From the NCBI GenBank assembly GCA_035650735.1, contig DASRGZ010000143.1, forward strand, positions 56,266 through 76,265: a stretch of DNA of 20,000 nt, given 5' to 3'. Both the position numbers and the translations under genes were made by a program. The stretch is from Chthonomonadaceae bacterium. Its GTDB lineage: Bacteria > Armatimonadota > Chthonomonadetes > Chthonomonadales > Chthonomonadaceae. The notes under the pieces were generated by a model that was not told where the DNA came from, ran no database searches, and saw only the letters and a list, made by a program, of their open reading frames with translations. Of this stretch, positions 301 through 19,861 are shown in pieces (the stretch's first letter is position 1; the number at the start of each line of letters is the position of its first letter).

Positions 301-465
301 AAAACCTCCAACAGGATAACAGGATTTTACAGGATTAAACAGGATTTCTCAAACCTACCCAACCGAGTACCTGTTCCTCTGGACTTCAAGCTGATTGGAG
401 GGCTTCTGTCTTTTGTCTTCATCCTGTAAATCCTGAGTAATCCTGTTCATCCGGTTGGAGGTTTT
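301..465. repeat. ~165-bp foldback (REP/MITE-like) element built from ACAGGAT units
   Basis: Left arm 301-345 has four ACAGGAT units; right arm 421-465 has the inverted ATCCTG-type units. Outer 12 bp AAAACCTCCAAC / GTTGGAGGTTTT are a perfect inverted pair. Abuts the FKBP stop codon. Confidence 0.85.
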
Positions 466-1070: not shown

Positions 1071-1245
1071 GGGGGTTACATCTCCTGCAAGGGCACGTCT
1101 CTGGGACGCCCGGTGTAATGGCAATCACAGGCTTGTTCGTGCCGGAGGAAGCGTTTTCCTGCCTTGAGGAGATCCGGCGCTCAATGGCGAATAGACCCCT
1201 GCATTGGCGTTTTCAGGAATCCCGCAACGCGGGAAAGAGAGGAAG

Positions 1246-3400: not shown

Positions 3401-3472
3401 GCCTCTGTAGCTCAGTGGTAGAGCAACCGCCTTGTAAGCGGTAGGTCGTCGGTTCGAAGCCGACCGGAGGCT
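3401..3472 (+). tRNA. trnT: tRNA-Thr (TGT), CCA not encoded
   Basis: Acceptor stem GCCTCTG/CGGAGGC, D arm GCTCAGTGGTAGAGC, anticodon arm ACCGC-CTTGTAA-GCGGT, T arm GTCGG-TTCGAAG-CCGAC. Confidence 0.97.
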
Positions 3473-3477
3473 TTTTG

Positions 3478-3547
3478 ACCCCTTCTGAGGGGTACGACTC
3501 CATAGCTTGTACCCACTTGTCCGCCGTTAGAATCGGGGTTTGTACCC
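3478..3547. repeat. Cluster of (GT)ACCC(CT) motifs next to the tRNA, candidate integrase arm-type sites
   Basis: ACCCCT-TCTG-AGGGGT hairpin (3478-3493), AGGGGTACG (3488-3496), TTGTACCC at 3507-3514 and 3540-3547. Confidence 0.4.
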
Positions 3548-3568
3548 CTCACATCCCCATTTTTTATC

Positions 3569-3614
3569 ACTACGCGGCCCGGCACAAAAGCGGAAGGCTG
3601 CGTAGTTATTTTTT
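3569..3614 (+). terminator. Possible intrinsic terminator downstream of the tRNA
   Basis: ACTACGCGGCC / GGCTGCGTAGT stem (one G-U) followed by TATTTTTT; the 16-nt loop is unusually long. Confidence 0.4.
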
Positions 3615-3805
3615 GTGTGTATTGCGCTACGGTCTTGGCTATCAAACGCTTATATGGGCAGGTGGGAACGCAAAGCATCGCGAATCAGAGTCTCAGAAAG
3701 CACCCGACACATAGGCTGGCAACACACAAGGACAAAATGCTGATAACTCCCATAGTGATCCAAATTGGCGTCGTCCAGTCTGTTGAAGGCGTTGCTCCTG
3801 CGATT

Positions 3806-4114
3806 TTAACCTCCAGTATTATGATAAGCAAGATAATCCAGCAGCAGCAGCCAAAACCATCCCCACAGGCCCAGGCCGATCCTGAAGTAACGCCACATGG
3901 AACCGGGTTCATCCCAAATCCATCGTATCGGCACACTGCTGCTGAGTAAAGGCGCTGGCGATGCAGCCTGCATCTGCAAGGTTGACTGGATAGTTGGCTG
4001 CGGAGGAGAAGGTTGCTGCGAAGGCGGGCGCTGATCGGCCCCACAGTGCCTACAAAAGACATCAGATAGATCAAGGGGCTGCTTACACTTGATGCAGTAG
4101 ACCGGATTGACCAT
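3806..4114 (-). CDS. Zinc-ribbon membrane protein (possibly frameshifted, true end may be 3685)
   Basis: MVNPVYCIKC...FCRHCGADQ double CxxC ribbon, Pro/Gln linker, hydrophobic segment; AGGAGA upstream of ATG 4114. Confidence 0.7.
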   Translation of the reverse strand: MVNPVYCIKCKQPLDLSDVFCRHCGADQRPPSQQPSPPQPTIQSTLQMQAASPAPLLSSSVPIRWIWDEPGSMWRYFRIGLGLWGWFWLLLLDYLAYHNTGG

Positions 4115-4349
4115 TGCTGCTTGTTCTCCTGGGGTTGTATGGTCGGTCTTACTACTGTGATGGGTCGCATTCTCTCTTTCGATACAGGCCAGCAATTCTC
4201 CTGCTGTTGATGGATTTCCACTGCTTACTCGGTTGGATCACGGAGGATGACGCTGGCAACCTTCAAGGGATCAAAAGCATCGCGCCTATCCTCCAGTCTG
4301 GCACTCTCATAGCGAATACGGTAGTAGTAATGAGCATTGTTGGGTTTCT

Positions 4350-4583
4350 CTAAGCCACCAACGATAGCGCAGGCCCAGTGTTGATAGCCTGGGTTGAGAT
4401 CACTACGATATGTTCGTCTAGGGCGGCTTTAAGTGTTTCAATGAAAACGGCCACCGCTTGGTCACGCCGTCTGCGAATGGCAACAGGTGTAGGCGCGTTA
4501 GCGCGCGCCGCTAAGTAATCAGCCTGTGCTGCCTTCACTTCGTCAAGCGCCCCCTGAAGGCGGGCCTCCATCTCTGTGTCCAT
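4350..4583 (-). CDS. Small helical hypothetical protein (77 aa)
   Basis: MDTEMEARLQGALDEVKAAQ..., AAGGGAGA SD upstream of ATG 4583; protein-like amphipathic composition. Confidence 0.6.
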   Translation of the reverse strand: MDTEMEARLQGALDEVKAAQADYLAARANAPTPVAIRRRRDQAVAVFIETLKAALDEHIVVISTQAINTGPALSLVA

Positions 4584-4794
4584 GTTCTCTCTCCCTTTAG
4601 CACCGTACCGCTCAAACGCATCGCAATGGCTCACCCGACCGAGGGGAGCAGCCAAGAAAGGACGAACGAGGTAGCAGTCCTTGTTAATGTGAACATTGTA
4701 GCGAGCGAAGAGAAAGTTGTCAATGGACTAATTACCGCACGGCGCATCCTCTCCAACACGCTCTTGCCCGTTCGTGAACACCAACCAAACCCAG

Positions 4795-4902
4795 GTCACC
4801 ACTGCGTTTCCCTCCGCCAGAGCCTTCGCTGGATCCTCCTCCCGCAGCGCCTCCAGGATAGCGCCTCGTCACCACTGCGTTTCCCTCCGCCAGAGCCTTC
4901 GC
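4795..4902. repeat. Perfect 35-bp direct repeat x2 with 38-bp spacer
   Basis: GTCACCACTGCGTTTCCCTCCGCCAGAGCCTTCGC at 4795-4829 and 4868-4902; both copies are followed by (T/A)GGAT. Confidence 0.95.
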
Positions 4903-4913
4903 AGGATTGACGC

Positions 4914-4955
4914 GGTTCTGGAGAGAACCCGGTTGGGCGGAGAAACCCAACCGGG
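4914..4955. other. GC-rich hairpins next to the direct repeat
   Basis: CCCGGTTGGG (4928-4937) / CCCAACCGGG (4946-4955) perfect 10-bp stem; overlapping alternative stem GGTTCT-GGAG-AGAACC (4914-4929). No T-tract. Confidence 0.6.
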
Positions 4956-5041
4956 CCTTACTGCTGCCTGCCGGAGAGGGAGGAGAGAGGCCCTTAGCGG
5001 CAGGGCGGAGGACAGGGGAACGCGCCGACTACAGGGGCCGC

Positions 5042-5425
5042 TTACTTCTTGACCGACCAGGCTCTCTCTACGCGCTCCAGATACGCCTCAATCTCCTCCT
5101 CGGCCCGCGCTGCCCGCGCATCCCGGTCACGCTCCCGACGCATATACTCCCGCATGTGCTCCACACACGCACTGATCTTGACCTGGATGCTGTTTTCCAC
5201 ATCCTCCCGCAGACGCGCTGCCTCCGCTTCCAACCAGATGGCTTTTTTGTAAAGGGAGAGACGCACGGCCTGCTCTCCGAGGGCCACACAGGCATCACAG
5301 ATATAGCCGATCCAGTCAGCATCGCGCTCATAGGCAGCGGCCACATGCCCTAACTCAAACAGATGCCCACAGACATAGCAGCGGTGGTCATCAAAGACAT
5401 TGCTGGCGAGCAAACGGATGTCCAT
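5042..5425 (-). CDS. Hypothetical zinc-binding, coiled-coil protein (127 aa)
   Basis: CYVC and CDAC motifs followed by a charged helical tail; strong AAAGGAG SD upstream of ATG 5425. Confidence 0.7.
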   Translation of the reverse strand: MDIRLLASNVFDDHRCYVCGHLFELGHVAAAYERDADWIGYICDACVALGEQAVRLSLYKKAIWLEAEAARLREDVENSIQVKISACVEHMREYMRRERDRDARAARAEEEIEAYLERVERAWSVKK

Positions 5426-5552
5426 CTTGGTGCTCCTTTCCCGCGCGCAAAGAGCGCGGCTCACAAAAGGGGATACGCCTCTGGGAGAACGTGGGCACGC
5501 AACAGAGGCGCAGTGCCCGCGCTCACCCATCGGCAGGAGCATTAGGGAGGGC

Positions 5553-5593
5553 AGAAACAACAAAGCCACCAGGCGCATTAGCGTCCGGTGGCT
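5553..5593 (-). terminator. Intrinsic terminator / attenuator
   Basis: Minus strand AGCCACCGGACGC-TAAT-GCGCCTGGTGGCT (13-bp imperfect stem) followed by TTGTTGTTTC. Confidence 0.6.
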
Positions 5594-5745
5594 CAACAAG
5601 GGAGATGGGAGGGAGTACAGTCTCAGGATAGGGAGACCTTGTTTCGGAAGGCGAGACTTCCGCGCATTGAGGCTTATGCCTCAAGCACCGCTGGCATCTC
5701 CTGGCCCGGTTGCTGGATGCTCTGCTGAGCATCGCTCCTAATGCA
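5553..5745 (-). ncRNA. Putative ~190-nt structured leader / small RNA
   Basis: Bounded by the 5752-5780 promoter and the terminator; contains hairpins GATGCTC-AGCA-GAGCATC, TTGAGGC-ATAA-GCCTCAA, GGAAG..CTTCC and GTCTC..GAGAC. Confidence 0.45.
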
Positions 5746-5751
5746 TCTCCT

Positions 5752-5780
5752 AGTATAGCGCATAAGTGGTCTTTTGTCAA
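5752..5780 (-). promoter_or_regulatory. Strong sigma70-type leftward promoter
   Basis: Minus strand TTGACA (5780-5775), 17-bp spacer, TATACT (5757-5752), with A-rich sequence upstream. Confidence 0.8.
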
Positions 5781-6119
5781 CCGATTTCCTTTTTTTATTT
5801 TGTCGTCTTCCCTATCCATCTGGTTTCGAGTATTTGACTTAAGGAGATGGTGGATGCCTCAGCCGGAGACACTGACGGTGAAATTCCGGTGTCTTTTCCG
5901 CAGGATTCTCCGTCCGGCTGTTGAATAGAGAGGCGATCTGTTGCGGCGCTCCGTGTGCGGCCTCATGGCAGCACTTTGTCCCCTTCCTGGCAAACAGAGA
6001 TAGGATGCTCTGCCTGGGTTTCCGCTTGCACTCGCCTGCCCGGAGTCTGCCCGTCAGAAAGGAATTGCTGGGGCCACTCGCGCCATTTTTCCCTCACGAT
6101 ACAGGTGACGACCACAGCC

Positions 6120-9100
6120 ATGCCGGATAATATTTTGCTCTCTCTCGTGGGCCAACGGGTGCCGCTGCCAGGACATTTCGATGTTCCCGTCCTCCTGGAG
6201 CATGTCCGTCCCCTGGCAACGGGCTTTGAGTGCCGCGTCCGCCTGCCCGATGGCAGGTTAGAAGAAGCCGTTCTCTCCTCCTCGGAAGCCCAGGCATTGG
6301 CAGGCAGGAGCGCCGTACCCACGCAAAGCGCGTGCCCTGCCCAGGCTGAGCAGCTGCGCTTGTTGATTGAGTCGGCCCGTATCCGGCTGGCCTATGCCCA
6401 CGACCCCCAGTTTGCCGTCTCCCTCTCCGGCATCCGCACGCTGCCCCACCAGATTGAGGCGGTCTACCAGAAGATGCTGCCCCAGCCGCGCCTGCGCTTC
6501 CTCCTGGCCGACGATCCCGGCGCAGGCAAGACCATTATGACGGGGCTGCTCATCAAGGAGATGAAACTGCGGGAGGCCATCGAGCGCGTCCTGATCCTCT
6601 GCCCGGCCCCCCTGACGATCCAGTGGCAGGATGAGATGCTACGCTGGTTCGACGAGCCGTTCGACATCCTCTTTGCGGCGGTGGATCAGCAGCAACTCAC
6701 CGACCCCTGGCAACGGTGTTCCCAGGTGATCGCCTCCCTGGACTACGCCAAGCAGGAGGAGGTGCGGGAGCGGGTCTGGCAGCAACGGTGGGACTTGGTG
6801 GTCATTGACGAGGCGCATAAATGCTCTGCCTACACCAAGTCCCAATCAGGTCGGAACCCGGAAGCCGAAGAGACGAAACGCTATCAACTGGCAAAGAAAC
6901 TCACGGCGCTGGCCGATCATGTGGTGCTGCTGACGGCCACGCCGCATCATGGCGATGAAGACCGCTTCGCCCATTTCGTCCGGCTCATTGACCCTGACCT
7001 GTTCCCGGAACCCCACCGGCTCGGCCATCAGGCCCAAGAGATTCGGAAGTCCGTCTTTCGGCTGGGCGCGGAGTGCCCCTGGGCGCTGCGCCGAATGAAG
7101 GAAGACCTGCGTGACCTCAACGGGCGCCGCCTCTTCCCCGACCGGCACGCCCTGACCGTTGCCTTCACCTTAAACCGTGCCGAATACGCGCTCTACAAGG
7201 CGGTAACGGCCTACATTAACGAGTTTATCCCCCAGCAGACCGGGCAGCGGAGAAGCAGCGCGGCGCTGGCCCGTACCGTGTTGCAGCGCCGCCTCGCCAG
7301 TTCGACCGCCGCCATCCATGAATCGCTCAAGCGCCGTCTGGAGAAGCAGCGGAACCTGCTGGAAGAACTGGAAAGCCTGACGCCCACCCAACGGGCCAGG
7401 CGGTTGGCGCGGACACAGGGACGCCTGCCAGACGCGGAGCAGGAAGAGGACGACCTGGACGAGGCCGCGCGTGATGTCGTGGTGGACGAGTACACAGCGG
7501 CACAGGAACTCGACCAGATGCGCCGGGAGGTCGCGGTCTTGAAGGAGTTGGCGGAGCAGGCCCGCCAGGTACGGGAGCAGGCCAGCGACTCCAAACTGGC
7601 TGCGCTCAAGAAGTGCCTGTCCCACTCGCAGTTCGCTGACCTAAAGGACGGGCGCGGGAAGCTGCTCCTGTTTACCGAGCACAAGGACACGCTGGATGCC
7701 GTGCGGGAGGTGCTGCACCGCTGGGGCTACTCTACCTGCGCCATTCACGGCGGCATGAATCCCCACGAGCGCAAGCAGGCGCAGGAGGAGTTCCGCACGT
7801 CCGCGCAGATGTGTGTAGCGACCGAGGCCGCCGGGGAGGGCATCAACCTTCAGTTCTGCCACCTGATGATCAACTACGACCTGCCCTGGAACCCGACCCG
7901 ACTGGAGCAGCGGCTGGGGCGCATCCACCGGATCGGACAGGAGCGGGATGTCTACGCCTTCAACTTTGTCGCCACCGAATCGGAGGAGGGGCAGCCGGTC
8001 ATCGAGGGGGCAATCCTCTCCCGGCTGCTCTGGAAACTCGATCAGATGCGGGACGCGCTCGGCGACCGCGTGTTTGATGTCGTGGGGGAAGTCCTCTCCC
8101 GGAACGACGTGAACCTGCCGGAGATGCTGCGGGAGGTCGCCCACGACCCGCGTCGCCTGGATGAGTACATGGAACAGATTGACCGCATAGACCCGGAGCG
8201 GCTGCGGCAGTACGAGGAGGCGACGGGCATCGCGCTGGCCCGTGCGACGGTGGACTTCAGCGGTTTTCAGGCCCGGAATCTGGAGGTCGAGGAGCGCCGT
8301 CTGATGCCCCGCTATGTGGAGGCGCAGTTCCTCGCCGCCGCAAGGGAGGTCGGCCTGAAGGTTGAGACCCGCGCGGACGGCCTGCTCCGTATCGAGCATG
8401 TGCTGGCCGACCTGCGCTCGGAGCGGTTGGCGTCCGTCCGTAAACTGGGCAAACCCGCCGTCAGTTATCGGAAGGCGACGTTTCAGAAAGAGACTCTGGA
8501 GCAGGATGCCCATATGGACGCGGTGCTGCTCGGCCCCGGCCATCCGCTCTATGGCGCTGTAGACGAGCGCCTGAACGAGAAGCTGGCGCCGCTCGTGGGC
8601 GGTATCGCCCTCTATCTTGACCCGTTGGCCGCCGGGCCATATCGCCTGCATTTCTTTGAAATCGCCATCCGGGGCAAAAACACGAAGGGCGAGGACGTGC
8701 CTCTCTATGGCGAACTGGTGGCCGTCCGCGAGGAGACGCGGCAAGACGGCACAGCGGCGTTTGAGGTCGTGCCCTCCGACGTGCTCATGAACCTGCCCCC
8801 GCTTCCGAACCCGCCCGACAGCGTGCCCATTGTAGACGTACAGCCCGCGTCCGACTACCTTAAGAGCACCTACCAGATCGAGTGTCGTGTCCGCTGCCAG
8901 CAGGAGCGCGAGCACTTCGCGAGCGTCTGTCGGAAGTATCTGCTCGAATCTTTTGGCGCCCGCATCCGCAAGACGCAGGATCGGGTGATGCAACTGATGG
9001 CGCGGGAGCGGGAGTCGGCGGACATGGCCCTGGCCCGGCAGCGGGCCGAGCAAGACCTGGCCGACCTGGAGCGCACGCGCCAGGAGCGCCTGTCCGGGCT

Positions 9101-9662
9101 GGCTCGCCTCGCCTTAGCCCGCACGGGGCCGGTGCGCCACGTCGGAACGGCGCTCATCGTCACCGAAGACGTAACCGGGGCCGACAGCATCCGCGCTGCC
9201 TTCGGCGGGGGCGACGCGGCCACGCGCGCGCGGGTGGAGAAAGCCGCCGAAGACCACGTGATCCGCCACCTGGTCGAAAAAGAGGGCTTCCTAGAGGCGG
9301 ATTGCGTGCGGGTGGGCCATGTGCGGATCGCGGGAAACACGCGCGAGGGCTTCGACATCCGAGCGGTCAAGGTCATTGACCACGCCACCGGGCAGATGGA
9401 AGTCCGGCGCATTGAAGTGAAGGGACGGCAGCGCGGCGGGAGCATCGTCCTGACGACGAACGAGTGGTACAAAGCCCAGCAGCTTGGCCCTTCTTACTGG
9501 CTCTACGTGGTCTGGAACCCGCTCGGCCCGGATGCGGAGGTATCCATCATCCAGAACCCGGCCCAACGGCTGGAGCACGCCAAGCGGGAGGTCATCGCGG
9601 CCCGCTACTTCGAGATCGAGGCCGACGCCCTGAAAACCGCCGCGCAGGGAGCAGGGGAATAA
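6120..9662 (+). CDS. SNF2-family helicase with C-terminal DUF3883-like PD-(D/E)XK nuclease (1180 aa)
   Basis: LADDPGAGKT (I), VIDEAH (II), LTATPH (III), TEAAGEGINLQ (V), EQRLGRIHRIGQ (VI). C-terminal GFDI...IEVKG...LTTNEW...YWLYVV. Start placed at ATG 6120 after AGGTGA. Confidence 0.93.
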   Translation: MPDNILLSLVGQRVPLPGHFDVPVLLEHVRPLATGFECRVRLPDGRLEEAVLSSSEAQALAGRSAVPTQSACPAQAEQLRLLIESARIRLAYAHDPQFAVSLSGIRTLPHQIEAVYQKMLPQPRLRFLLADDPGAGKTIMTGLLIKEMKLREAIERVLILCPAPLTIQWQDEMLRWFDEPFDILFAAVDQQQLTDPWQRCSQVIASLDYAKQEEVRERVWQQRWDLVVIDEAHKCSAYTKSQSGRNPEAEETKRYQLAKKLTALADHVVLLTATPHHGDEDRFAHFVRLIDPDLFPEPHRLGHQAQEIRKSVFRLGAECPWALRRMKEDLRDLNGRRLFPDRHALTVAFTLNRAEYALYKAVTAYINEFIPQQTGQRRSSAALARTVLQRRLASSTAAIHESLKRRLEKQRNLLEELESLTPTQRARRLARTQGRLPDAEQEEDDLDEAARDVVVDEYTAAQELDQMRREVAVLKELAEQARQVREQASDSKLAALKKCLSHSQFADLKDGRGKLLLFTEHKDTLDAVREVLHRWGYSTCAIHGGMNPHERKQAQEEFRTSAQMCVATEAAGEGINLQFCHLMINYDLPWNPTRLEQRLGRIHRIGQERDVYAFNFVATESEEGQPVIEGAILSRLLWKLDQMRDALGDRVFDVVGEVLSRNDVNLPEMLREVAHDPRRLDEYMEQIDRIDPERLRQYEEATGIALARATVDFSGFQARNLEVEERRLMPRYVEAQFLAAAREVGLKVETRADGLLRIEHVLADLRSERLASVRKLGKPAVSYRKATFQKETLEQDAHMDAVLLGPGHPLYGAVDERLNEKLAPLVGGIALYLDPLAAGPYRLHFFEIAIRGKNTKGEDVPLYGELVAVREETRQDGTAAFEVVPSDVLMNLPPLPNPPDSVPIVDVQPASDYLKSTYQIECRVRCQQEREHFASVCRKYLLESFGARIRKTQDRVMQLMARERESADMALARQRAEQDLADLERTRQERLSGLARLALARTGPVRHVGTALIVTEDVTGADSIRAAFGGGDAATRARVEKAAEDHVIRHLVEKEGFLEADCVRVGHVRIAGNTREGFDIRAVKVIDHATGQMEVRRIEVKGRQRGGSIVLTTNEWYKAQQLGPSYWLYVVWNPLGPDAEVSIIQNPAQRLEHAKREVIAARYFEIEADALKTAAQGAGE

Positions 9663-9712
9663 CGCATCCATCGTGGTTATCGAGGGGGTAATAACGCCGG
9701 GAGGAAGCGTGC

Positions 9713-10804
9713 GTGAGCGAAGAACTACAGCCCGTCTCGGAAGCGCAGGCGCTCGCCGACCTGAGCAGCGGCATTGCGCTCCTTCTGGAGGAGGCCCGCC
9801 GGCGGGCCGCCCGCTCCGTCAACGCGATCATGACCGCGACCTACTGGGAGATCGGGCGGCGCATCGTCGAGTTTGAGCCGGGCGGCCAGGGGCGCGCGGA
9901 CTATGGGGAGCAGATCATCGAACGGCTGTCCAAAGACCTGACGGCCCGGTTTGGACGCGGATTCGGACGGAGTAATCTGTTCCAGATGAGGGCTTTTTAT
10001 CGAGCCTATGCGCAGATTGTCCAGACAGTGTCTGGACAATTCGACCTATCCGAGGTGGCTACCGCCTTCCCGCTCTCCTGGTCGCACTACGTCCGACTGC
10101 TCTCTCTTCGGGACGAGTACGCCCGCCGCTTCTACGAAACGGAGGCTCTGCGGGGCGGATGGTCGCTGCGGCAACTGGATCGGCAGATCAACTCCCTGTT
10201 CTATGAGCGCACCGCCCTCTCCCGGAATAAGGCCGCCATGCTGACGCAGGGCACGAAAGCAAAGTCCGAAGACGCTATGACCCCGGAGGAGGAGATCAAA
10301 AGCCCCTATGTGCTGGAGTTCCTGGGGCTGAAGGACGAGTATTCTGAGGCTCAACTGGAAGAGGCGTTGATCCGCCACCTGGAGGGTTTCCTGCTGGAAC
10401 TGGGCAACGACTTCACTTTCGTTGCGCGGCAGAAGCGCATCCGGGCCGGCGATGACTGGTATCGCATGGACTTACTGTTCTACCATCGCCGCCTGCGCTG
10501 CCTGGTCATCATTGACCTGAAGATCGGCAGACTGGATCACGCCGACGTGGGGCAGATGAATCTCTACATCAACTACGCCTATGACCATCTGACGCTGCCC
10601 GATGAGAACCCGCCTGTCGGCCTCATCCTCTGTTCGGAACCCAACGCAGCGGTAGCGCAGTATGCGATGAACCGCCTGATGAATACGGTGCTGGCGGCAG
10701 AGTACCGCACGGTGCTGCCCGACCCGGCGCAATTGGAAGCGGAACTGGCGGAGACCCGGCGAATGCTGGAATCGCCCAACCGCAAAAGGAATCCAGATGC
10801 CTGA
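9713..10804 (+). CDS. yhcG: YhcG/DUF1016-family PD-(D/E)XK nuclease
   Basis: YWEIGRRIVE, LSWSHY, KSPYVLEFL, FLLELGNDFTFVARQKR, DLLFYHRRLRCLVIIDLK, GQMNLY, ENPPVGLILC. GTG start after GGAGG; 3' end overlaps the methylase start. Confidence 0.93.
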   Translation: MSEELQPVSEAQALADLSSGIALLLEEARRRAARSVNAIMTATYWEIGRRIVEFEPGGQGRADYGEQIIERLSKDLTARFGRGFGRSNLFQMRAFYRAYAQIVQTVSGQFDLSEVATAFPLSWSHYVRLLSLRDEYARRFYETEALRGGWSLRQLDRQINSLFYERTALSRNKAAMLTQGTKAKSEDAMTPEEEIKSPYVLEFLGLKDEYSEAQLEEALIRHLEGFLLELGNDFTFVARQKRIRAGDDWYRMDLLFYHRRLRCLVIIDLKIGRLDHADVGQMNLYINYAYDHLTLPDENPPVGLILCSEPNAAVAQYAMNRLMNTVLAAEYRTVLPDPAQLEAELAETRRMLESPNRKRNPDA

Positions 10805-13689
10805 TAACGACCGCCGACTTATTGAGGACTACCTGCCCATCGAGGCCATCAGCGCAGAAGCGTCCAGAGAGAAATCCGTCCGTAAGGGCCATATCTCCAC
10901 GCTGCACCTCTGGTGGGCGCGACGACCGCTCGTCGCGTGCCGGGCCGCCGTCTATGGGGCGCTGGTTCCCGCCGACCGTTTCAAGAGCCGCAAGGCTGCC
11001 GAGAAGTTTGTCACGGCGCTGTGCAAGTACCCTGGCGACCCGCGCACCATCGCGGAGGCCGAGCGGCACATCCTGGAAGCGCACGCCGAGCGACTGACGC
11101 GGGAGACGGGCCAGGTCGTCACCGTCGAGGACATTGTGGCAGGCCGCGCTCCCAGGCCGAAGGTGCTGGACATGTTCGCGGGCGGTGGGGCCATCCCCCT
11201 GGAGGCGCTGCGCCTGGGCTGCGACGCCTACGCCCTCGACCTGAATCCCGTCGCGCATATCATTGAACTCTGCACGCTCGTCTACCCGCAGAAGTACGGC
11301 AAGCCGGACAAGAACGCGAAGGGCTGTGCGCAGGACGGGACGTGGGCGGGCCTGGCGGCGGAGGTGGAGCACTGGGGCAAGTGGGTCTTGGAGAAGGTGA
11401 AGGCGGAGATAGGCGACCTCTACCCACCGATCCCTGACCCGGAAAACCCGCCCGTCGAATTAGCCCCACGCCCGCAGTTGGTGATGGAGGAAGAGGACTT
11501 CCCGCCACCCAAGCAACTCTCCCTCAAAGCCGGGTCGGGCTGGTTGACACCGGTAGCCTATCTGTGGACGCGCACGGTGCGCTGCAAGAATCGGGCGTGC
11601 GGCGCGACAGTGCCGTTGGTACGGCAGACCTGGCTCTGCAAAAAGACAGGGCGCTATGTCGCGCTGAAAATGGCCGCGCCAAAGGGCGCGAAGCGCGTCC
11701 GGTTCGAGGTCGTGGAGGCGGACACGGAGCAGGCGCTTGGTTTCGATCCGGCGGGGTTCAGCAAGAGAGGTAATGCAGCCTGTCCCTTCTGCGGTACGGT
11801 AGCCGAAAGCGGCTACGTGAAGGCGGAGGGCTGCGCCGGGCGCATGGAGCAGCAAATGATGGCGGTTGTCTGCACGCGCCCCGGCAAGCAGGGAAGAGTT
11901 TACCTTTCCGCCGAAGGTCTAACGAGTTTTATTCCCGATGACGCTGCAATCCGGCAGCGAGTCGAGGAGTTTTGTGCGCGGACAGGGTTGACCGTGCCTT
12001 ATGAATCTATCTATAACGATGCGAAGAACGCCAATTTCTGCGTACTGTATGGCCTGACTCAGTTCAGTTCTCTTTTTTCTCCGCGTCAGATGCTCTGCCT
12101 GCTGACCTTCGCCGCTGGTGTGAGACATGCGAATACCGAGATGCTCCGCGAGGGTTACAATGCAGAACACGCGAAAGCGGTTCTCACGTTCCTCGGCTTG
12201 CTAGTAGACCGACTTGCCGACTACAACTCTGCGCTCTGTCACTGGCAGAATACAAGGGAAATAATCGGTCATACGTTCGGTCGGCAAGCGTTGCCGATGG
12301 TCTGGGACTTCACGGAACTGGCTCCGTTTGGTGAAGCGTCTGGCAGCCCGCAGGGAGCCATTGCCTGGCTTAGTGGGTACGCGGCAGCGGAGCAGGATTC
12401 CGGTGCGCCTGCGACTGTCGTACGTGGCTCGGCCACCGCGCTGCCCTGGCCCGATGCCACCTTTGATGCGGTCATTACTGATCCACCGTATTATGACAAC
12501 GTTCCATATGCGAACGAATCAGATTTCTTTTATGTTTGGCTCAAGCGCACCATCGGACTGCATTATCCAGAACATTTCTCCTCCGAGGGATCACCTAAGA
12601 AGCGAGAAGCGGTCGCAGATGCTTTACGGCATGGAGGAGATAAGAGAAAGGCTAACGCGGCTTACGAGAGCATGATGGCCCAAGCGTTCAGCGAGGCATA
12701 TCGCGTTACAAAGCCTGGTGGTCAGTTGAATATCGTTTATGCCCACAAGACAACGCTCGGCTGGGCTACTCTCGTGGACGCGCTGCGTCGGGCTGGTTTC
12801 ACCGTTACCGAAGCCTGGCCCCTTGATACCGAGATGAAAACCCGGCTGCGCGGCATGGAGTCAGCGGCTCTCGCCTCCAGCATCTTCTTGGTTGCCCGAA
12901 AGCGCGACGGTCGGCTTCTACGAGGAGGACGTTCAGCCGGAACTAGAGCGCATCGTTCGGGAGCGGGTAGATACGCTCTGGGAGCAGGGCATTGCTGGAG
13001 CCGATCTGGTCATCGCCGCCATCGGTGCGGGACTGCGGGCCTTCACGCGCTACGCCTCCGTCGAGTACGCCAACGGCGAGGAGGTTCCCGCCGAGAAGTT
13101 CCTGGCTGAAGTTGAAGGCGTCGTGCTGGAGACGCTGCTGGAGAAGATATTCAACGTGCCGCGCTCCGGCGTGGCGGCGGTGGACGGGCCGAGCCGATTC
13201 TACACTCTCTGGCGCTACACCTACCGGAGCGGCGAACTGGACGCGGGCGAGGCCATCGTCTTCTCCTACGCGCAGCACGTCGAATTGGACGGCCCGCGTG
13301 GGCTGACGGCGGGCAGCCGCGCCCTGGTGAAGAAGACGAAGGGCAAGTACAGCCTGCTCGACTACACGGAGCGCGGCCAGGACGAGAAACTGGGACTGCC
13401 TGCGCCGGACGGCACAACCGCGCCTCTGATTGACGTGTTGCACCGTGCTCTCTGGCTGATGGAGAATGAGCCGCGCAAACTCAAGGAGTTCCTCGACGAA
13501 GCCCATCCCGACCGCGAGCGGCTGCGCTTGCTGGCTCAGGCGCTCTCCGGGGCCGGTCTCAAGGGCACGGAGGCGGAAGGAACCCGCAACCTGATTGCCA
13601 CCACCACATCGGAGCAGTCCACGCTCGCCAAACTGGTAGCAAACTGGCGCACACTGGTCGCCGACAGCCTGTTCAGCGACGGAAGATAA
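10797..13689 (+). pseudogene. DUF1156-family DNA adenine methyltransferase, split by a +1 frameshift near 12905
   Basis: N-terminal LHLWWARRPL, motif I VLDMFAGGG, two Cys pairs (CKNRAC, CPFC), catalytic TDPPYY. After SIFLVARKR the protein-like sequence continues in the +1 frame (ORF 12892-13689); joined product is about 965 aa. Confidence 0.88.
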
Positions 13690-13702
13690 GAGGAGGAAGC
13701 CC

Positions 13703-16585
13703 ATGAACATTATGGCACTGCGCCCCTGGACAGACATGGTGACGCTCCACCCGGACGTAGAGGCTGGAGCGCTCACCGAGGCTATCTTCGCTATTGACCT
13801 GGGCGCGATTGCCGCCCGCGACCCCAATGTTCCGGCAGTCAACCGCACCCCAGAGGCTTTCTTCCGCGCCACGCACATCACCGCCGACCTGGGCCGATTG
13901 CTGGAGGAGGTACTGGCCTCCCTCGCCGGAGAGCCAGGCTACAACCGTGTGCTGAAACTGCGCACGCCCTTCGGGGGCGGCAAGTCGCATACGCTGGCGG
14001 CCTTGCTGCACGCCGCCCGCGACCGGGCGGCCCTCAACGTCGTGACTGGCGCAGAGCGTTTTGCTGATCCCGGCCAGGTGCGTGTGGCCGTCTTCGACGG
14101 GGAGAAGTTTGGAGCGCTGGAGCCGACACCGCTGCCCAACGGCCAGGCCGTGCAGACGATGTGGGGCTGGCTGGCCTGGCAGATAGGCGGCGAGAAGGCG
14201 CGGGCGCTCGTCGCGGAGAATGACCGCAACCGCACCGCGCCGGGCGGCGACCTGATCCACCGTCTGCTGACGGAAGGGGCGGACGGACGCCCGGTGCTCC
14301 TGCTGCTGGATGAGGTGCTGAAGTACATGGAGCGGGCCGCCTCGGTGGCCGTTCTCGACTCCACGCTGGCGCGGCAGGCGAAGGACTTCTTCCAGAACCT
14401 GACGGTCGAGGTCGCCAAGACCACCCACGCCGTGATGGTCTACTCGCTGCAATGGAGCGCACGGGAGGCCCTGGGCAACATGGCTCTCCTTGACGAACTG
14501 GATAAACTGGCCTCGCGGGTGGATCAACTGCGGGAGCCGGTCTCCGGCGACGAGGTATTACCCATCCTACAGCGCCGTCTGCTTGGCGGCAAGCCGGACG
14601 AGGCGACGGCCTCCGACGTGGGAGCGGCATACGAGGAGGTCGTGACCACTATGCGCCGGGCCTATGCTGACAACACGACCGAGCGGCAGATGGCCGAGGA
14701 GGAAGGTATCCTCCTACGGGAGCGGTTTAAGGCCGCCTATCCGTTCCATCCGGCCCTCATAGACGCCATGCGCGAGCGGTGGACTGCGGTGGATGCCTTT
14801 CAACGCACACGCGGCTCGCTCCGGTTCCTGGGACAATGCCTCCACAGCCTCAAGAAGAACGGTGGCGCGCGGCCCCTGCTCGGCCCCGGCGACATTCCGC
14901 TCCGCGATCCGGAAGTGCGCCTGGCGATGCTCAAAGAGTTGAATGCCCAGAACGACTACGATCCGGTCGTCGCTGCCGACATCGAAGGGCCGAACGCCCG
15001 CGCCAGGCGCATTGACGACCGGCTGGCCCGCGAGACACCCGCTCTTGCCAGCGTCCGGCCCGCCACCCGGTTGGCGACGGCCATCTTTGTCTATTCCTTC
15101 GGCGGGCTGAAGCGGCAGGGAGAGACCGACGCGGAGGCGCTGCCGCCAGGGGTGACAGAAGCAGAACTGCTGGCCGCGTGCGTGGGGCCGGACTTAGACA
15201 GCATCACGGCGACGGCGGTGCTAGCCGACCTGCGGACATCCTGTCTGTACCTGCATTACGACGGTCTGCGCTACTGCTTCAAGAAAGACCCGAATGTCAC
15301 CAAGCTGGTCGAGGATGCCGAGCAGGAGGTGGCCCGCAATGCCGAGGAGGTCAGGGGCAAGATCAAGGAACTGCTGACGCAGCGCCTGGCAGGGCAACGG
15401 ACAGTGGTTGTCTGGCCTGCCAAGACCCAGGACGTGCCGGATAGGGAACCGGCATTCCTGCTTGGCTACCTGCCCCTGGAGTTCGCCGCCGCATCGAGCG
15501 CCGAGCAGGAGCGGCAGGCCATTGAGATGTTTACCAGGTATGGCGACCGCCCGCGCTCCTATCGTAACGGCATCGGGCTGGCGATCCCGGATAGGAAGCA
15601 GGTGGAGGCGCTGCGTCGGGCCGTGCGGTATCTGATGGCTTGCGACCGGGTGGAGGCCCGCAAGAGCCAACTGCGCCTCAGCAAAGACCTGCTGGATCAA
15701 CTCAAGGAGCGCAAGCGAACGGAGGAGGCAGCGGTCGAGGCCGCGTTTCGGGCGCTCTATACTGCTGTCTGGCTGCCTCGTGTGGAGGAGGGCGGTATCG
15801 GCATCGAGCGGGTCGAGGCGGCAGGCCGTCCCTTGCAGGCGACGGGCATCCACGAGCGCATGTTGGAACTGCTCACTGTCGTCGGTACGCCCAAAATGCA
15901 CCAGAGCGTGACACCCCGCAAGATCATCGAGCGCCTGCGCCTGCGCGAGACCGCCGAAGGCGAGGAGGCCGCCCGGCCTGGCGTTCGGGTGTCGGATGTG
16001 CGGGATGCCTTCTTCGCCGTTCTGGAGCCGCCCCGCCTGGACTCGCTCAACGCGCTGCGGAAGGCCATCGTGCGGGGTGTGCAGGAGGGTGCGTTCGGAT
16101 ACGCCAGCGGTTATGCGCCCAACTTGGGGACGGACGGACGCTATCAGCTTCCCCGCGAGCGGATCGCCTTCTGCCGCGCTCTGTCCGAGGATGAAGTGGA
16201 TTTCGACAGCGGCTTTCTGATGCTACCGGCGGCTATCCCGGAGGCAGTCCCGGTCGCGCCGACGCCGGAGCCATTTCCAGCGGGCGTGAGCGAAGGACTT
16301 GCCCCAACGTCTGGCGGCGTCAGCGCCCCGCCAACCCCTTCCGGCCCGGCCTCACCGCCCTCCACCGCAACGACCGGCGTGGTTAAGTTTGGTTTTGTGG
16401 CAACACGGGATCAGGTATTCCGGGCATTTCCGGCCATAGCGAATTTGGCGGAGAAGGCTGATGGCGGCAAGGTAGCTATCCAGGTAGAGGCGTCTGCCGC
16501 CGCAGGCTTTGATCCAGCGTGGTTGCGCAACGCCGTCGAAGAGCCGCTCGACGAGGCCGACATCGAACGCCTGGAAACGAATTAG
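13703..16585 (+). CDS. DUF499-family AAA+ ATPase (960 aa)
   Basis: N-terminal LRPW...LHPDV, EAFFRATHIT, Walker A LRTPFGGGKSH, Walker B LLLLDE, AYPFHP, FQRTRGSLR; AGGAGG SD. Pro-rich linker before a small C-terminal domain. Confidence 0.93.
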   Translation: MNIMALRPWTDMVTLHPDVEAGALTEAIFAIDLGAIAARDPNVPAVNRTPEAFFRATHITADLGRLLEEVLASLAGEPGYNRVLKLRTPFGGGKSHTLAALLHAARDRAALNVVTGAERFADPGQVRVAVFDGEKFGALEPTPLPNGQAVQTMWGWLAWQIGGEKARALVAENDRNRTAPGGDLIHRLLTEGADGRPVLLLLDEVLKYMERAASVAVLDSTLARQAKDFFQNLTVEVAKTTHAVMVYSLQWSAREALGNMALLDELDKLASRVDQLREPVSGDEVLPILQRRLLGGKPDEATASDVGAAYEEVVTTMRRAYADNTTERQMAEEEGILLRERFKAAYPFHPALIDAMRERWTAVDAFQRTRGSLRFLGQCLHSLKKNGGARPLLGPGDIPLRDPEVRLAMLKELNAQNDYDPVVAADIEGPNARARRIDDRLARETPALASVRPATRLATAIFVYSFGGLKRQGETDAEALPPGVTEAELLAACVGPDLDSITATAVLADLRTSCLYLHYDGLRYCFKKDPNVTKLVEDAEQEVARNAEEVRGKIKELLTQRLAGQRTVVVWPAKTQDVPDREPAFLLGYLPLEFAAASSAEQERQAIEMFTRYGDRPRSYRNGIGLAIPDRKQVEALRRAVRYLMACDRVEARKSQLRLSKDLLDQLKERKRTEEAAVEAAFRALYTAVWLPRVEEGGIGIERVEAAGRPLQATGIHERMLELLTVVGTPKMHQSVTPRKIIERLRLRETAEGEEAARPGVRVSDVRDAFFAVLEPPRLDSLNALRKAIVRGVQEGAFGYASGYAPNLGTDGRYQLPRERIAFCRALSEDEVDFDSGFLMLPAAIPEAVPVAPTPEPFPAGVSEGLAPTSGGVSAPPTPSGPASPPSTATTGVVKFGFVATRDQVFRAFPAIANLAEKADGGKVAIQVEASAAAGFDPAWLRNAVEEPLDEADIERLETN

Positions 16586-16656
16586 AGGGCGATCACGCTA
16601 CGATTGCCTGGTCTCCAGAAAGAGAAGAAGCACTGGGCTGGATGGAAAGGCTCGCC

Positions 16657-17259
16657 TCAAGGGTGATCTTCCAGCGTATCGGCCTCTGTGCTGGCATCGC
16701 TGGCAGCCTCGGCCTCGTGCTTTTCCAGAAACTTCTCCAGCGCATCGTTTAGCTGCCCGATGACAAACGTTCTGTCCAGGGCCAGTTCTGCGGCGGTAGG
16801 CGCTTCGGTGGGCGTGGTCGCTGTGAAGAGTCCGGGCCTGCTCTGCGGCGTGTCCACCAGGCGGCTGAGGTCGGCCAGGGTCGCGCGAAACTCGCGACCC
16901 AATAGAACGATGTCCACCTTGTTGGCGGGCAGGCGGGGCATGTCCTCGTAGCCCCGCACTTTGCCGGTCATGCGCTGCCAGAGGTCTTCGGCGTGCTGCG
17001 CCAGCGCCATAATGCGCCGGGCGCGCAGGGCCAACCCAACCTGCACGCTCTCTATGTCCAGGCGCTCCAGGGCTTGCTGCACCTTGCGCGACTGGCGATA
17101 GCGGTGGAGGGCTTGCCGAGAGATGGGCAGGTAGCCCTCCTGCTCCAGCGCCGCCTGTACCTGAGCGTTGCTGTCTCCAGCGAGGAGGCGCTGTCGGATC
17201 AGCTTCCTGGCAGCAGGAGGCAGCTTCGGGCCAGGACGGGAAGCGTCAAAATCAGTCAA
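16657..17259 (-). CDS. Putative phage small terminase subunit-like HTH protein (DUF3486/Mu gp27- or DUF2280-like)
   Basis: N-terminal KLPPAARKLIRQRL...VQAALEQEGYLPISRQALHRY resembles the HTH of those families; helical middle region; TTG start with GGAGG SD. Confidence 0.55.
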   Translation of the reverse strand: MTDFDASRPGPKLPPAARKLIRQRLLAGDSNAQVQAALEQEGYLPISRQALHRYRQSRKVQQALERLDIESVQVGLALRARRIMALAQHAEDLWQRMTGKVRGYEDMPRLPANKVDIVLLGREFRATLADLSRLVDTPQSRPGLFTATTPTEAPTAAELALDRTFVIGQLNDALEKFLEKHEAEAASDASTEADTLEDHP

Positions 17260-17272
17260 GATTCTGGCCTCC

Positions 17273-17551
17273 CTACCCGCCTAACGCGTTTGCTAAGCTA
17301 TCGAGATGCTGGTAGCGTTCGCGCGTCAGCCAGCCAGCATTGGCCCGCTCCACGTCCTGCGAAGAGAAGCCTGGCACCGTCTGGCCGCTCTCGCGCAGCT
17401 TGACAAGGCGATCCATCAGGTGGGTCGCTTGCTGGCGCGGCACGTAGGGGCTAACCGATACAGCCGGCGGCGCCGCCTTCTGCATAGCCGCCGCCTTCTC
17501 CAGCTTTTTGCGCTCCTTGAAGCGTTTGTAGGCTTGATCAAAGTGGCTCAT
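17273..17551 (-). CDS. Hypothetical basic protein (92 aa)
   Basis: GGAGG SD, tight operon spacing with both neighbours; no family recognised. Confidence 0.7.
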   Translation of the reverse strand: MSHFDQAYKRFKERKKLEKAAAMQKAAPPAVSVSPYVPRQQATHLMDRLVKLRESGQTVPGFSSQDVERANAGWLTRERYQHLDSLANALGG

Positions 17552-17571
17552 TGGCGTCTATCCTCCGTGAC

Positions 17572-18090
17572 TTATCGGGCCAACCACGTCGGCCCGCCCT
17601 GTAAAACCCAATCGGCAAGCGCCGCGTTAGCCTCGCCCACCGGCTGCGCTGGCTCGCCGCCCAGGGGCGTGTAGCTGATTTTCTTGCCGTCCACCGGGCG
17701 CAGGGCGTCCGCATCACCGACCCAGTAGGGCAGGTTGCTCTCCAGCCAGGCCAGAAGGACGGCGCGGGCTTTGCGCGCTCGGTTGACAGCGGCCTCTACC
17801 GCGCTCAAATCGCGTTGCAGGCGCGGTATCCAGCCGCTGGCCTGCTGGCGGCAGTTAGCGTAGAGCCTGACCGCCGCCGCCTCCTTCGCAGCGATCTCCT
17901 GGCGGGTGTTGGAGACGACGTAAGTCAAATGATCGCCGCCACCGCGTTGGCGGGCGAAGGCCCGCGCCGAAGCGTCCCCGTCCAGGCGGACGTCTCGCGT
18001 GTCGGAGTAGGTGCGCGCACAGCGGGCTTGAAGCGTCAATAGAGCCTCGGTAGCCTGCCTGTCGAGCGTCAAAATGCTCGTCATGGACAT
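17572..18090 (-). CDS. Hypothetical helical protein (172 aa)
   Basis: ATG directly follows the excisionase stop (TAG-ATG) with GGAGGG SD; no family recognised. Confidence 0.7.
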   Translation of the reverse strand: MSMTSILTLDRQATEALLTLQARCARTYSDTRDVRLDGDASARAFARQRGGGDHLTYVVSNTRQEIAAKEAAAVRLYANCRQQASGWIPRLQRDLSAVEAAVNRARKARAVLLAWLESNLPYWVGDADALRPVDGKKISYTPLGGEPAQPVGEANAALADWVLQGGPTWLAR

Positions 18091-18306
18091 CTATTTGCCC
18101 TCCTGGGCTGGCTGCTGGCCCTCGTGCGCCAGTTGGTGTAGAGCCTCCATCGGGATGCGGCGGCACTTGCCAAGCTGAACGGAAGGCAGCTTGCCAGCGG
18201 CCATCAGGCGGAGCAGGGTGGACTCGGAGATAGCAAGCATCCTTGCTGCCGCAGGGACGGTCAGCAAGAGCGGCTGCGTCGCTTCGCGCGTTGCCGCATA
18301 GGGCAT
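18091..18306 (-). CDS. xis: Excisionase-like HTH_17 DNA-binding protein (71 aa)
   Basis: LLTVPAAARMLAISESTLLRLMAAGKLPSVQLGKCRRIP matches the excisionase winged-HTH pattern; AAAGGAG SD. Confidence 0.88.
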   Translation of the reverse strand: MPYAATREATQPLLLTVPAAARMLAISESTLLRLMAAGKLPSVQLGKCRRIPMEALHQLAHEGQQPAQEGK

Positions 18307-18354
18307 TGGTTCAAATCTCCTTTAGAAGCCGGATAGCGTAACGTACAGCTTTCA

Positions 18355-18424
18355 GGTAGTGTACCCATAGAGAGTTGATACTTCGTCGCCGATGACCTTA
18401 TCAACTCTGTAGAGGGACACTACC
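18355..18424. mobile_element. 70-bp MITE with 26-bp terminal inverted repeats and 8-bp target-site duplication
   Basis: GGTAGTGTACCCATAGAGAGTTGATA (18355-18380) vs TATCAACTCTGTAGAGGGACACTACC (18399-18424), 22/26 complementary. Flanked exactly by AGCTTTCA at 18347-18354 and 18425-18432. Confidence 0.85.
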
Positions 18425-18491
18425 AGCTTTCATGCGGCTCCATTAGTAACTATGCGGGCATGGAGGAGTGCGTAACAGGGCGTGCAAGTGC

Positions 18492-18730
18492 AAGGAGTCG
18501 CGCGACTCCTTTTGTGGATGATGGATAAACACAGGAGGGGGGAAGGAGTTTAACCGAGGTCGAGGGGTCAAATTGTGCAGACACGTCTGCACTTTGGGGT
18601 GAGCGTAGGGATAAGCGGGTGATGGCCTGTCTACCCCGAACGCGGAGTTGGCAGAGCCGCAACGAAAAAATTAGTGCAGCAAGCAGGAAGGGCAGGAGTG
18701 CCTGGCTAATCTAGATATTACCTGCTTGCT
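18492..18730. promoter_or_regulatory. Palindrome-rich divergent intergenic region
   Basis: Perfect 20-bp palindrome AAGGAGTCGCGCGACTCCTT (18492-18511); GTGCAGAC-AC-GTCTGCAC (18575-18592); AGCAAGCAGG/CCTGCTTGCT (18678-18687 / 18721-18730). Confidence 0.6.
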
Positions 18731-18810
18731 TCGACCCTCCTAAAGCCAGCAGAGCCCTTCCATTCGTGGATGCCCTATACCGTACCCCTATCCGCAGGAG
18801 GCTTCTTCAG

Positions 18811-19861
18811 ATGAATGGCAAGATGCTGGCATCAGGCTACAGAACGGTGCTTCTCCTCGTCACTGTGTTGTTAGGCTTGCTTCAACGGCAGGCGCTCGCC
18901 CAGACGCCACCGCCCCTGGATCAAACAGCCAGTCCCTCCGGCATCGGCATTCTCTCTGGCCTGGACACCAAAACACCGGCACCCGCTCACCCTGCCGAAG
19001 ACGGGCATCTGGTCGTTACGGCAGCCCGTACTCAGGCTTTGGCGCTGCCCGGCACCATTGTCGAAATCGTTCCGGCGCTCCCCCTGCCAGGTTTTGAGAC
19101 TGCCATGATCGCGGTCGAGATTGACGGACAAGAACAGGCCAGGCAGATCGTTGACCCCACCAGCCCGCTGCCGGTGGTCAGAGTGCCCCCGCCCACAGGA
19201 GAGGTGGGCCGCAAGCGCGTGCGCGTCGTCCTCTTTAACCACTTCAAAGAGCCTGCCGAGTCCTCCCAGTGTGTTATCCGAGCGCGGATGCACGCCAGCG
19301 TGCAGATGACCGCCCAGTTGCAGGGCGAACAGCTTCGCCTGGCTATCGCGGACAGGGCCTCTCTCCAGGGCGTCTATGTGTTTGAAGGCGCTACCTATCT
19401 GGGACGGCTGGAGGACAATACCGAGCAGGCCCTCCTGGATGCCCGGACGCTGCTGCCCGGCTCCCATCGCTTCTGGGTCGTTGCCGAGACCGCCGAAGGC
19501 GTTTTGTTGCCCCCGATCAGCCAGATGGTGAAGATAGAGCCGCGCTATCGGATCAGCCTCCCCGCCCAGACAGGCCCCATCCTGGTGCCCCAGGACAACC
19601 CGGATAAGAAGCTCTCCGTCAAGGTGGAGCGCGCCGAAGGGGTCGGCATCGCCAAGACCCGGTTGCTGGTGGACGGCACCATCGTGGGCGAGAGCGAAGA
19701 GGCGGTCATCCAGATGGAGGTGCCCCTGCGCAACGTGCCCTCCGGCCCGACGACCATAGAGGTCATCGGCATCGGCAAAGACGGCCACCTCTATCCCAGT
19801 GAGAGCCTGCCCATTGAAGTGCAGAACAAAGCCTGGGAGGCGCATGTTGCCAATACGCTGG
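18811..19861 (+). pseudogene. Secreted beta-rich (Ig-like?) protein, first ~350 codons, interrupted by IS21
   Basis: Open frame from ATG 18811 (AGGAGG SD) to the window end, so absent from the ORF track. Signal peptide MNGKMLASGYRTVLLLVTVLLGLLQRQALA|QTPP; beta-strand-like segments such as KTRLLVDGTIVG and TTIEVIGIG. Confidence 0.75.

Follow-up and report, generated by a model that had tools for sequence, protein, structure and literature searches.

The locus analysed here raises the question of what kind of mobile element has brought a defence operon to a tRNA-Thr gene of a Chthonomonadaceae bacterium (genome G000), and whether this element can still move. The 20,000 nucleotides studied, called hereafter the window, are the final 20 kb of contig C143, in an assembly of 6.5 Mb and 224 contigs. 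An earlier reading of the letters alone, called hereafter the original prediction, had proposed a phage-satellite-like island between positions 3473 and 18800, with the defence operon inside its backbone. We consider it somewhat probable that the island, integrated at a tRNA gene, has a complete satellite-like element of the same genome as its sibling, that it carries defence and riboswitch cargo in the slot that likely tail genes occupy in the sibling, and that it is probably in decay and unable to move by itself any more. This reading draws on a pair of attachment (att) sites with an empty site in relatives, five collinear blocks shared by the two elements, a small terminase subunit (TerS) family recognised by gene context, and the identities of an Hma operon and a riboswitch.

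The 3' half of the tRNA-Thr gene is duplicated (40 bp, 39 of 40 identical) on another contig of the same genome, at C147:1208-1247. In a genome of the same genus (G001), an uninterrupted tRNA-Thr has the C147 genes on one side and those of C143 on the other, in collinear order, i.e. the site is empty, and G013 is likewise empty within the 3 kb inspected. A letter of the T loop in the empty-site tRNA is present in the C147 copy and absent from the window copy, so the C147 copy is likely the displaced chromosomal end. Insertion of an island at the tRNA gene, as predicted, is real, and the island is larger than first drawn. Its end had been placed at 18800, which is wrong: the window stops at the contig end, inside the end of an IS21-family insertion sequence (IS), and the att duplicate lies on C147. 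The assembled island parts total about 17.8 kb, which is a minimum size. C143 terminates in the istB end of the IS21, which interrupts an exported-protein gene starting at 18811 (a family found in 9 of 60 relatives), C147 starts in an ISL3 end, and the gap between these two IS ends conceals the far part of the island. The C-terminal part of the 18811 gene was not found in the assembly; some island DNA is therefore unassembled. In the 1.2 kb that precede attR on C147, the sole gene is an orphan zinc-finger gene.

A relative of the island, called hereafter the sister, is present in the same genome at a tRNA-Arg gene. Joining C49 (15409-30407) to C20 (141-5247) across an IS21 copy, by means of a matching 6-bp target duplication recognised by eye, gave an element of 20.1 kb whose two ends are marked by an 89-bp duplication of the tRNA-Arg. 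It starts with an integrase (E 2.5e-34), an Xis, a primase (E 1.6e-85), a non-coding leader, a second Xis that also matches AlpA (E 6.4e-4), and homologues of the 172-, 92- and 200-amino-acid (aa) proteins of the window, the last being TerS. Next come a SprT-like gene, two paralogues (172 and 184 aa), an open reading frame (ORF) of 87 aa, a 1023-aa protein, small genes and a zinc-ribbon gene. No match to capsid, portal, large terminase subunit (TerL) or tail-tube proteins was obtained among 15 ORFs of C49 (Pfam, 12 of them also PHROGs) and 7 of C20 (Pfam only).

Sequence shared with the sister falls into five blocks of the window, which keep their order in both elements and are 76-100% identical (18491-18595, 16714-17980, 4935-5008, 4571-4594 and 4008-4204), and the homology extends to some 530 bp from attL. 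The slot between TerS and the 4935-5008 block holds the SprT-like to 1023-aa genes in the sister, whereas in the window it holds the Hma genes, YhcG and the riboswitch cassette; judged from this alignment, the hairpin-rich block is the downstream border of the cargo slot. The leader, with its two palindromes, is a candidate regulatory or packaging site. The layout described in the original prediction, with small minus-strand genes at both ends and a plus-strand defence operon (6120-16585) between them, is present, and its satellite-like backbone gains support, as each end has a collinear homologous counterpart in an element that lies between att sites and in which no capsid or TerL gene was recognised. 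Synteny of the four-gene xis cluster, which had been suggested as a check, was found in the complete sister. Homologues confined to full prophages or to integrative and conjugative elements had been named as the outcome that would speak against a satellite; the only close ones found lie in the sister. The xis product itself matches HTH_17 in Pfam (E 1.9e-11) and phrog_66 (E 1.8e-6).

The 200-aa product of 16657-17259, for which a TerS-like structure had been proposed, has 58 relatives at E values up to 0.001. Its structural model (predicted local distance difference test score 85.6) has a three-helix head and a long helical hairpin, and the first ten PDB matches were all small terminases (P74-26, G20c and Sf6), with E values of 0.064 to 0.34; a PF11985 match was below cut-off. 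Gene context is stronger evidence than the fold. In six of nine fetched loci the homologue lies directly before TerL or a TerL-like gene; the remaining three had no TerL, and two of them are tRNA-Val islands with integrases. The protein thus belongs to the TerS family by its context, which bears out the prediction, while the structural part of the check returned weak matches. The family profile matches 12 of 401 genomes of the phylum.

The three genes that precede TerS matched nothing in the nine loci. Outside relatives were also sought by searches that were word-based or limited to clusters. In these, the TerS sub-alignment found none in viral contigs, the sister TerS none in metagenome contigs and the 172-aa protein none in viral contigs, and in protein collections the 172- and 184-aa proteins retrieved only themselves. 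The Atlas gave no usable match for the 172-aa protein.

The cargo slot of the sister contains genes that resemble a tail module. For the 184-aa protein, the nearest named Atlas clusters were tail assembly chaperones, with scores under the Atlas bar, and four chaperones were among the first ten viral matches of a fold search (best E 0.007). Full-length alignments gave Z 7.3 with YqbN (root-mean-square deviation (rmsd) 4.2, 89 residues aligned) and Z 7.2 with the HK97 chaperone (rmsd 3.6, 83 aligned). As a lead from these three fold or feature searches, the protein may be tail-chaperone-like. By position and composition, the 1023-aa protein is likely a tape measure. Neither gene is present in the window element; for the sister, the support is at lead level.

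No integrase, primase or capsid gene was visible in the original prediction, and none was matched among 16 window ORFs (Pfam) or 13 (PHROGs). An integrase is expected next to attR because of the layout of the sister, and is absent from the 1.2 kb before attR as it is from the window. The search of downstream sequence that had been proposed thus yielded the duplicate of the tRNA 3' end on C147 and no integrase tied to the island. Nine tyrosine-integrase and two serine-recombinase matches were found in the genome, none attributable to the island. Of the integrases considered, those on C93, C132, C211 and C30 are at other tRNAs, and that on C18 is a short fragment among host genes. Further integrases are on C107 and at C143:37684. 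The primase of the sister has no second copy in the assembly. Three marks of decay were noted, namely a frameshift in hmaB, a miniature inverted-repeat transposable element (MITE) of 70 bp between leader and xis, and the IS21 that cuts the 18811 gene; the MITE has 23 near-identical copies in the genome, 22 of them with 8-bp target duplications. The prediction had left a choice between a decayed element and one with an integrase beyond 20000. Decay is favoured by the three lesions and by the absence of an integrase from the 1.2 kb before attR, and the gap prevents a full separation of the two. Tracing the gap by target duplications failed, as among seven right-hand and five left-hand IS21 contig ends, four pairs matched by eye and C143 had no partner; the left ends of ISL3 lie inside another repeat.

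By analogy with phage-inducible chromosomal islands (PICIs), the ancestor would have excised with its own integrase and Xis, replicated with its own primase, and packaged itself using its own TerS with the TerL of a helper phage. The sister may in addition provide a tail chaperone and a tape measure of its own, as do the PICI-like elements (PLEs) of Vibrio. The window element is probably inert; it may now mainly benefit its host through HmaA, and the riboswitch is predicted to let an orphan zinc-finger gene be read when S-adenosylmethionine (SAM) falls.

Several observations weigh against the sibling reading. The orientation of the island relative to its tRNA is opposite to that of the sister. 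The fold matches of TerS are weak throughout, with a best PDB E value of 0.064 and none reaching 0.001, and a wide structural search returned generic helical hairpins only. The chaperone matches are at lead level (E 0.007 or worse, Z 7.2-7.3), and the tape-measure call comes without any Pfam or PHROGs match. As searches beyond this genome gave no close relatives of the cluster, two copies are all that the family is built on. An intact helper phage was not recognised in the genome. Finally, the stretch missing between C143 and C147, whatever its length, could contain an integrase and a primase, and no partner contig was found for the IS21 end.

Four other explanations were considered. The locus could be a composite, with a satellite remnant (3475-18600) at the tRNA-Thr lying beside a second element, or captured host DNA, that owns the att pair. 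The inverted orientation fits this, as do the 18811 gene and the zinc-finger gene before attR, which have no sister counterpart, and the recurrence of the riboswitch and of a PDDP-motif module on C154, outside a recognisable satellite. We find it rather unlikely, given that the homology to the sister comes within about 530 bp of attL, that no second att copy was found, and that the sister too carries an unrelated host-type gene just upstream of its leader, which makes the position a variable one. A clearly unlikely origin for the two elements is a temperate phage that left them as deletion relics, its head and tail-tube genes having been cut out. TerS followed by tail chaperones and a tape measure is the usual phage order, the homologues of TerS belong to prophages at most of the loci examined, and the sister has a frameshift in its 172-aa homologue and carries an IS21. 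However, at least two clean deletions are needed, and the genes preceding TerS had no match in the nine loci. Moreover, two copies about 79% identical lie at different tRNAs; in each of them TerS is open and TerL is missing, which implies movement after the loss of TerL.

That the island is an intact mobile satellite, with integrase and primase in the unassembled gap, is improbable in our view. Both att sites, xis and TerS are intact, and the missing end of the 18811 gene indicates that some island DNA is indeed lacking from the assembly. Against this stand the three lesions (two insertions and a frameshift), the absence of any integrase next to attR, and the failure to find in the genome a second primase of the sister type or an unassigned intact integrase among the eleven recombinase matches. 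Contig depth on the island pieces was about that of flanking host pieces in each of four runs, i.e. without excess, although this is a weak measure. Tyrosine integrases are site-specific, and this bears on the last possibility, an atypical minimal satellite mobilised in trans by the integrase and primase of the sister. The palindromic leader is common to both elements, and the intact 172-aa gene of the window could complement the broken copy in the sister. Nevertheless, the att cores share only ordinary tRNA likeness (77%), the sister has an integrase and a primase of its own and another tRNA as its target, and an island of at least 17.8 kb is not minimal. Mobilisation in trans, as put forward in the original prediction, is thus very improbable.

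The sibling reading can be compared with known satellites. PICIs are defined by five core components (as given in PMC10085698). The window shares with them a tRNA att pair, an Xis/AlpA-type regulator, a stand-alone TerS and accessory cargo after TerS, and the sister in addition has an integrase and a primase, which were not assembled for the window island. No capsid-morphogenesis gene of the PICI type was matched in the island, where the 92- and 172-aa orphans are of undefined family, and the assembled island gave no match to tail, portal, TerL or lysis genes (Pfam, PHROGs). The elements differ further by their size, about 20 kb against a median of 9.5 kb, and by the tail-chaperone-like genes of the sister, tail genes being forbidden in the PICI model as PMC10085698 presents it. 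According to the same source, more than 99.9% of detected PICIs are in Proteobacteria or Firmicutes. The PLE of Vibrio cholerae encodes its own tail assembly chaperone and tape measure and no full tail (as described in PMC12987554). The sister looks similar in these two genes, at lead level, and differs by a duplicated chaperone-like gene and an NrS-1-type primase, whereas the window element has no tail module. The mycobacterial elements named EPIPs (PMC12822802) are a further comparison system. The island resembles a PICI in how it works, yet it does not qualify as one, because its integrase, primase and capsid-morphogenesis genes are unseen and because tail-type genes occur in the sister; the best fit is a decaying PICI-like satellite. 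Tail substitution has been shown only for PLEs, and catalogued PICIs come nearly all from two phyla. A sibling pair with a likely tail module or defence genes in one slot therefore points to a satellite family outside the known range and to a site of cargo exchange.

The defence operon was identified by PADLOC as HmaA, the candidate PDC-S02 (YhcG), HmaB and HmaC (6120-16585), and is an already known system. Hma is a DUF499 system related to Type-1 bacteriophage exclusion (BREX), classed as BREX-related in PMC12839542, and the window likewise has a helicase-nuclease, a DUF1156 methyltransferase and a DUF499 ATPase in one operon. An extra defence gene between A and B is a further likeness, about two thirds of hma loci having insertions according to PMC11232893 and PMC12839542. 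The window differs in that the insert is YhcG, HmaB is frameshifted and the operon faces away from the SAM riboswitch. HmaA retains D1079, E1099, K1101 and E1115, the four nuclease residues, with the spacing given in PMC11232893. Both catalytic motifs of HmaB are in its first piece, and homologues at 67-69% identity are continuous through the break point, so that the window HmaB is not full-length. An assembly error was rejected, as contigs of four runs are identical there, three of which may be source DNA. Programmed frameshifting is unlikely because the window is some 8-11 bases shorter than two homologues at the break. HmaA alone restricted T4 in one tested system (PMC11232893), and defence may persist through HmaA despite the broken HmaB.

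Back to back with the Hma operon is a cassette headed by a SAM-I/IV riboswitch (RF01725), which the original prediction lacked, as it did the MITE and the HmaB frameshift. In agreement with its class (as described in PMC2864571 and PMC5473149), the aptamer scores over cut-off and has the invariant binding-pocket letters, a P2 without kink-turn loop, P5, and a pseudoknot with the P3 loop. It differs in preceding an orphan gene on a satellite-like island and not a methionine or SAM pathway gene. The alignment comprised 20 of 28 loci (L079, L093, L094, L097, L099, L105, L106 and L107 were left out). Stems P1, P2, P3 and P5 covary (pairing in 96% of cells against 25-42% in slid controls; two-sided changes in 16 of 25 pairs), and the pseudoknot between P3 loop and 3' tail has at least five pairs in 17 of the 20 (mean 5.6 versus 3.2 for shuffled tails, 0 of 2000), although these controls overstate significance, the structure being taken from Rfam and the sequences being related.

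Within the order, 9 of 68 genomes have the switch, and within the phylum, 15 of 151. By DNA search, the 260-bp unit was found in only one of 42 family genomes, the source genome itself, and the exact core pattern had no match in viral contigs; riboswitches are reported as rare in phage genomes (PMC2864571, PMC5473149). The 127-aa orphan behind the switch has one other homologue, at 62%. The first gene behind the switch is a full MetK at five loci (three from one genus, two below cut-off), a DNA methyltransferase being next at the one inspected. Elsewhere it is a MoxR-like ATPase (three loci), YbjN (two by Pfam, one by likeness, with an SNF2 helicase behind two of these three) or DUF3293 (one), the rest being orphans or loci with no clear ORF. 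True SAM sensing is supported, since MetK follows the switch at several loci.

The T3 SAMase disables BREX by destroying SAM (10.1101/2023.02.27.530186), hence the hypothesis of a SAM-loss sensor, by which the riboswitch may turn on a backup orphan gene when phages destroy SAM. No report of bacteria detecting phage SAM destruction by an RNA sensor was found in a full-text search, most subscription journals lying outside its coverage. Several findings argue against a dedicated guard role. The proposed antiterminator lies about 12 kcal/mol above the best fold and is thus not favoured. Five switch neighbourhoods, viewed by eye over 15-20 kb, look like small inserts among host genes. The only other RF01725 match in the genome, on C154, is 85% identical, precedes a different Cys-rich orphan and has no defence operon in view.

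A wider proposal would make the two elements a new satellite family that is packaged through TerS, as PICIs are, that substitutes tail parts, as PLEs do, and in which the tail module can be swapped for defence cargo. In the window copy, the riboswitch would be a tripwire that switches on an orphan backup effector beside Hma in response to phage SAM lyases, the enzymes by which SAM-dependent defence of the BREX type is disabled. As a whole we regard this as unlikely. The intact sister and the riboswitch are the parts most worth following, the sister being a better target than the window element, and the riboswitch offers a direct route to asking whether bacteria detect phage SAM destruction by an RNA sensor.

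Table 1. Features of the window around and inside the island (HTH, helix-turn-helix; RBS, ribosome-binding site).
Feature	Position	Strand	Remarks
tRNA-Thr(TGT), integration target	3401..3472	+	ARAGORN, Rfam
attL core, 40 bp, from anticodon loop to tRNA 3' end	3435..3474	+	partner copy C147:1208-1247, 39/40
Zinc-ribbon membrane protein, 129 aa	3806..4195	-	N-terminus 89% identical over 63 aa to last large gene of sister
Orphan ORF	4350..4655	-	24-bp RBS/start region (4571-4594) identical to one in sister
Sigma70-like promoter ahead of the 4350..4655 ORF	4723-4695	-	
Hairpin-rich sequence	4935..5008	-	78% identical to DNA just behind the 1023-aa gene of sister
Orphan protein, 127 aa, two CxxC pairs, likely coiled coil; first gene behind riboswitch	5042..5425	-	
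Terminator-like hairpin, weak U tract, likely expression platform	5563..5594	-	folding; conserved in C154 copy; not called by terminator scan
SAM-I/IV riboswitch aptamer (RF01725)	5629..5749	-	46.8 bits vs cut-off 41.1, model positions 1-99
Sigma70-type promoter ahead of riboswitch, 11/12 consensus matches	5752..5780	-	also in C154 copy
HmaA, SNF2 helicase with NOV_C nuclease, 1180 aa	6120..9662	+	PADLOC E 6.3e-182
YhcG/DUF1016 PD-(D/E)xK nuclease (PADLOC candidate PDC-S02), between hmaA and hmaB	9713..10804	+	
HmaB, DUF1156 adenine methyltransferase, two frames, split near 12909	10797..13689	+	
HmaC, DUF499 ATPase, 960 aa	13703..16585	+	PADLOC E 4.3e-106
TerS family protein, 200 aa	16657..17259	-	79% identical to that of sister
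Orphan, 92 aa	17273..17551	-	83% identical to that of sister
Orphan, 172 aa	17572..18090	-	intact in window, split over two frames in sister
Xis/AlpA-type HTH regulator, 71 aa	18091..18306	-	47% identical to second Xis of sister
Inverted-repeat MITE, 70 bp, 8-bp target duplication, between leader and xis	18355..18424	.	
Conserved non-coding leader, two palindromes	18491..18595	-	76% identical to that of sister
Exported-protein gene, cut by IS21, inside att-bounded island	18811..19861	+	
istB-side end of IS21-family element, contig break	19862..20000	.	

Other observations were made in the window and in related loci. A 40-bp direct repeat (98%) at 4795-4834 and 4868-4907 occupies a non-coding gap between two island genes. 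The host flank (465-3273) encodes an FKBP-type isomerase lipoprotein and a DUF6785/DUF6784 membrane protein, the gene for the latter being absent between FKBP and tRNA in G001. At C154:12500-13770, the second SAM-I/IV copy, its Cys-rich orphan and a small PDDP-motif protein form a patch after groEL; PDDP proteins are also behind the switch in G029 and G053, and present in the sister. At L084:7033-9956, L085 and L089, a second aptamer-like sequence comes after the SAM-I/IV switch and before YbjN, with the SNF2 helicase behind it in two of the three. A small unit of switch, MetK and DNA methyltransferase lies among host genes at L108:10009-12578 (G197) and in G146 and G189, and looks like a SAM resupply for the methylase.

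No TerL was recognised in the source genome; a phrog_2 match on C86 was rejected, as it looks like a RecD-type helicase, which we presume it to be. A remnant of a phage head module (portal, protease and major head protein) lies at C167:43099-49052, with no TerL or tail genes recognised. A truncated integrase at C211:434-1565 adjoins a tRNA-Lys, is 50% identical to that of the sister, and is a possible relic of a third family member. A third island, at tRNA-Val (C30:12449-34081, 30-bp duplication), encodes a tyrosine integrase, a RecJ-like gene, a serine recombinase and a Rep_trans initiator, together with a second DUF499/DUF1156/PLD-helicase operon. In genome G320, an island running from L066:7385 to L047:15499 has a serine integrase, restriction-type cargo, a sigma-like gene, a primase, a TerS-family gene and an 896-aa TerL-like protein, with no capsid among the genes scanned.

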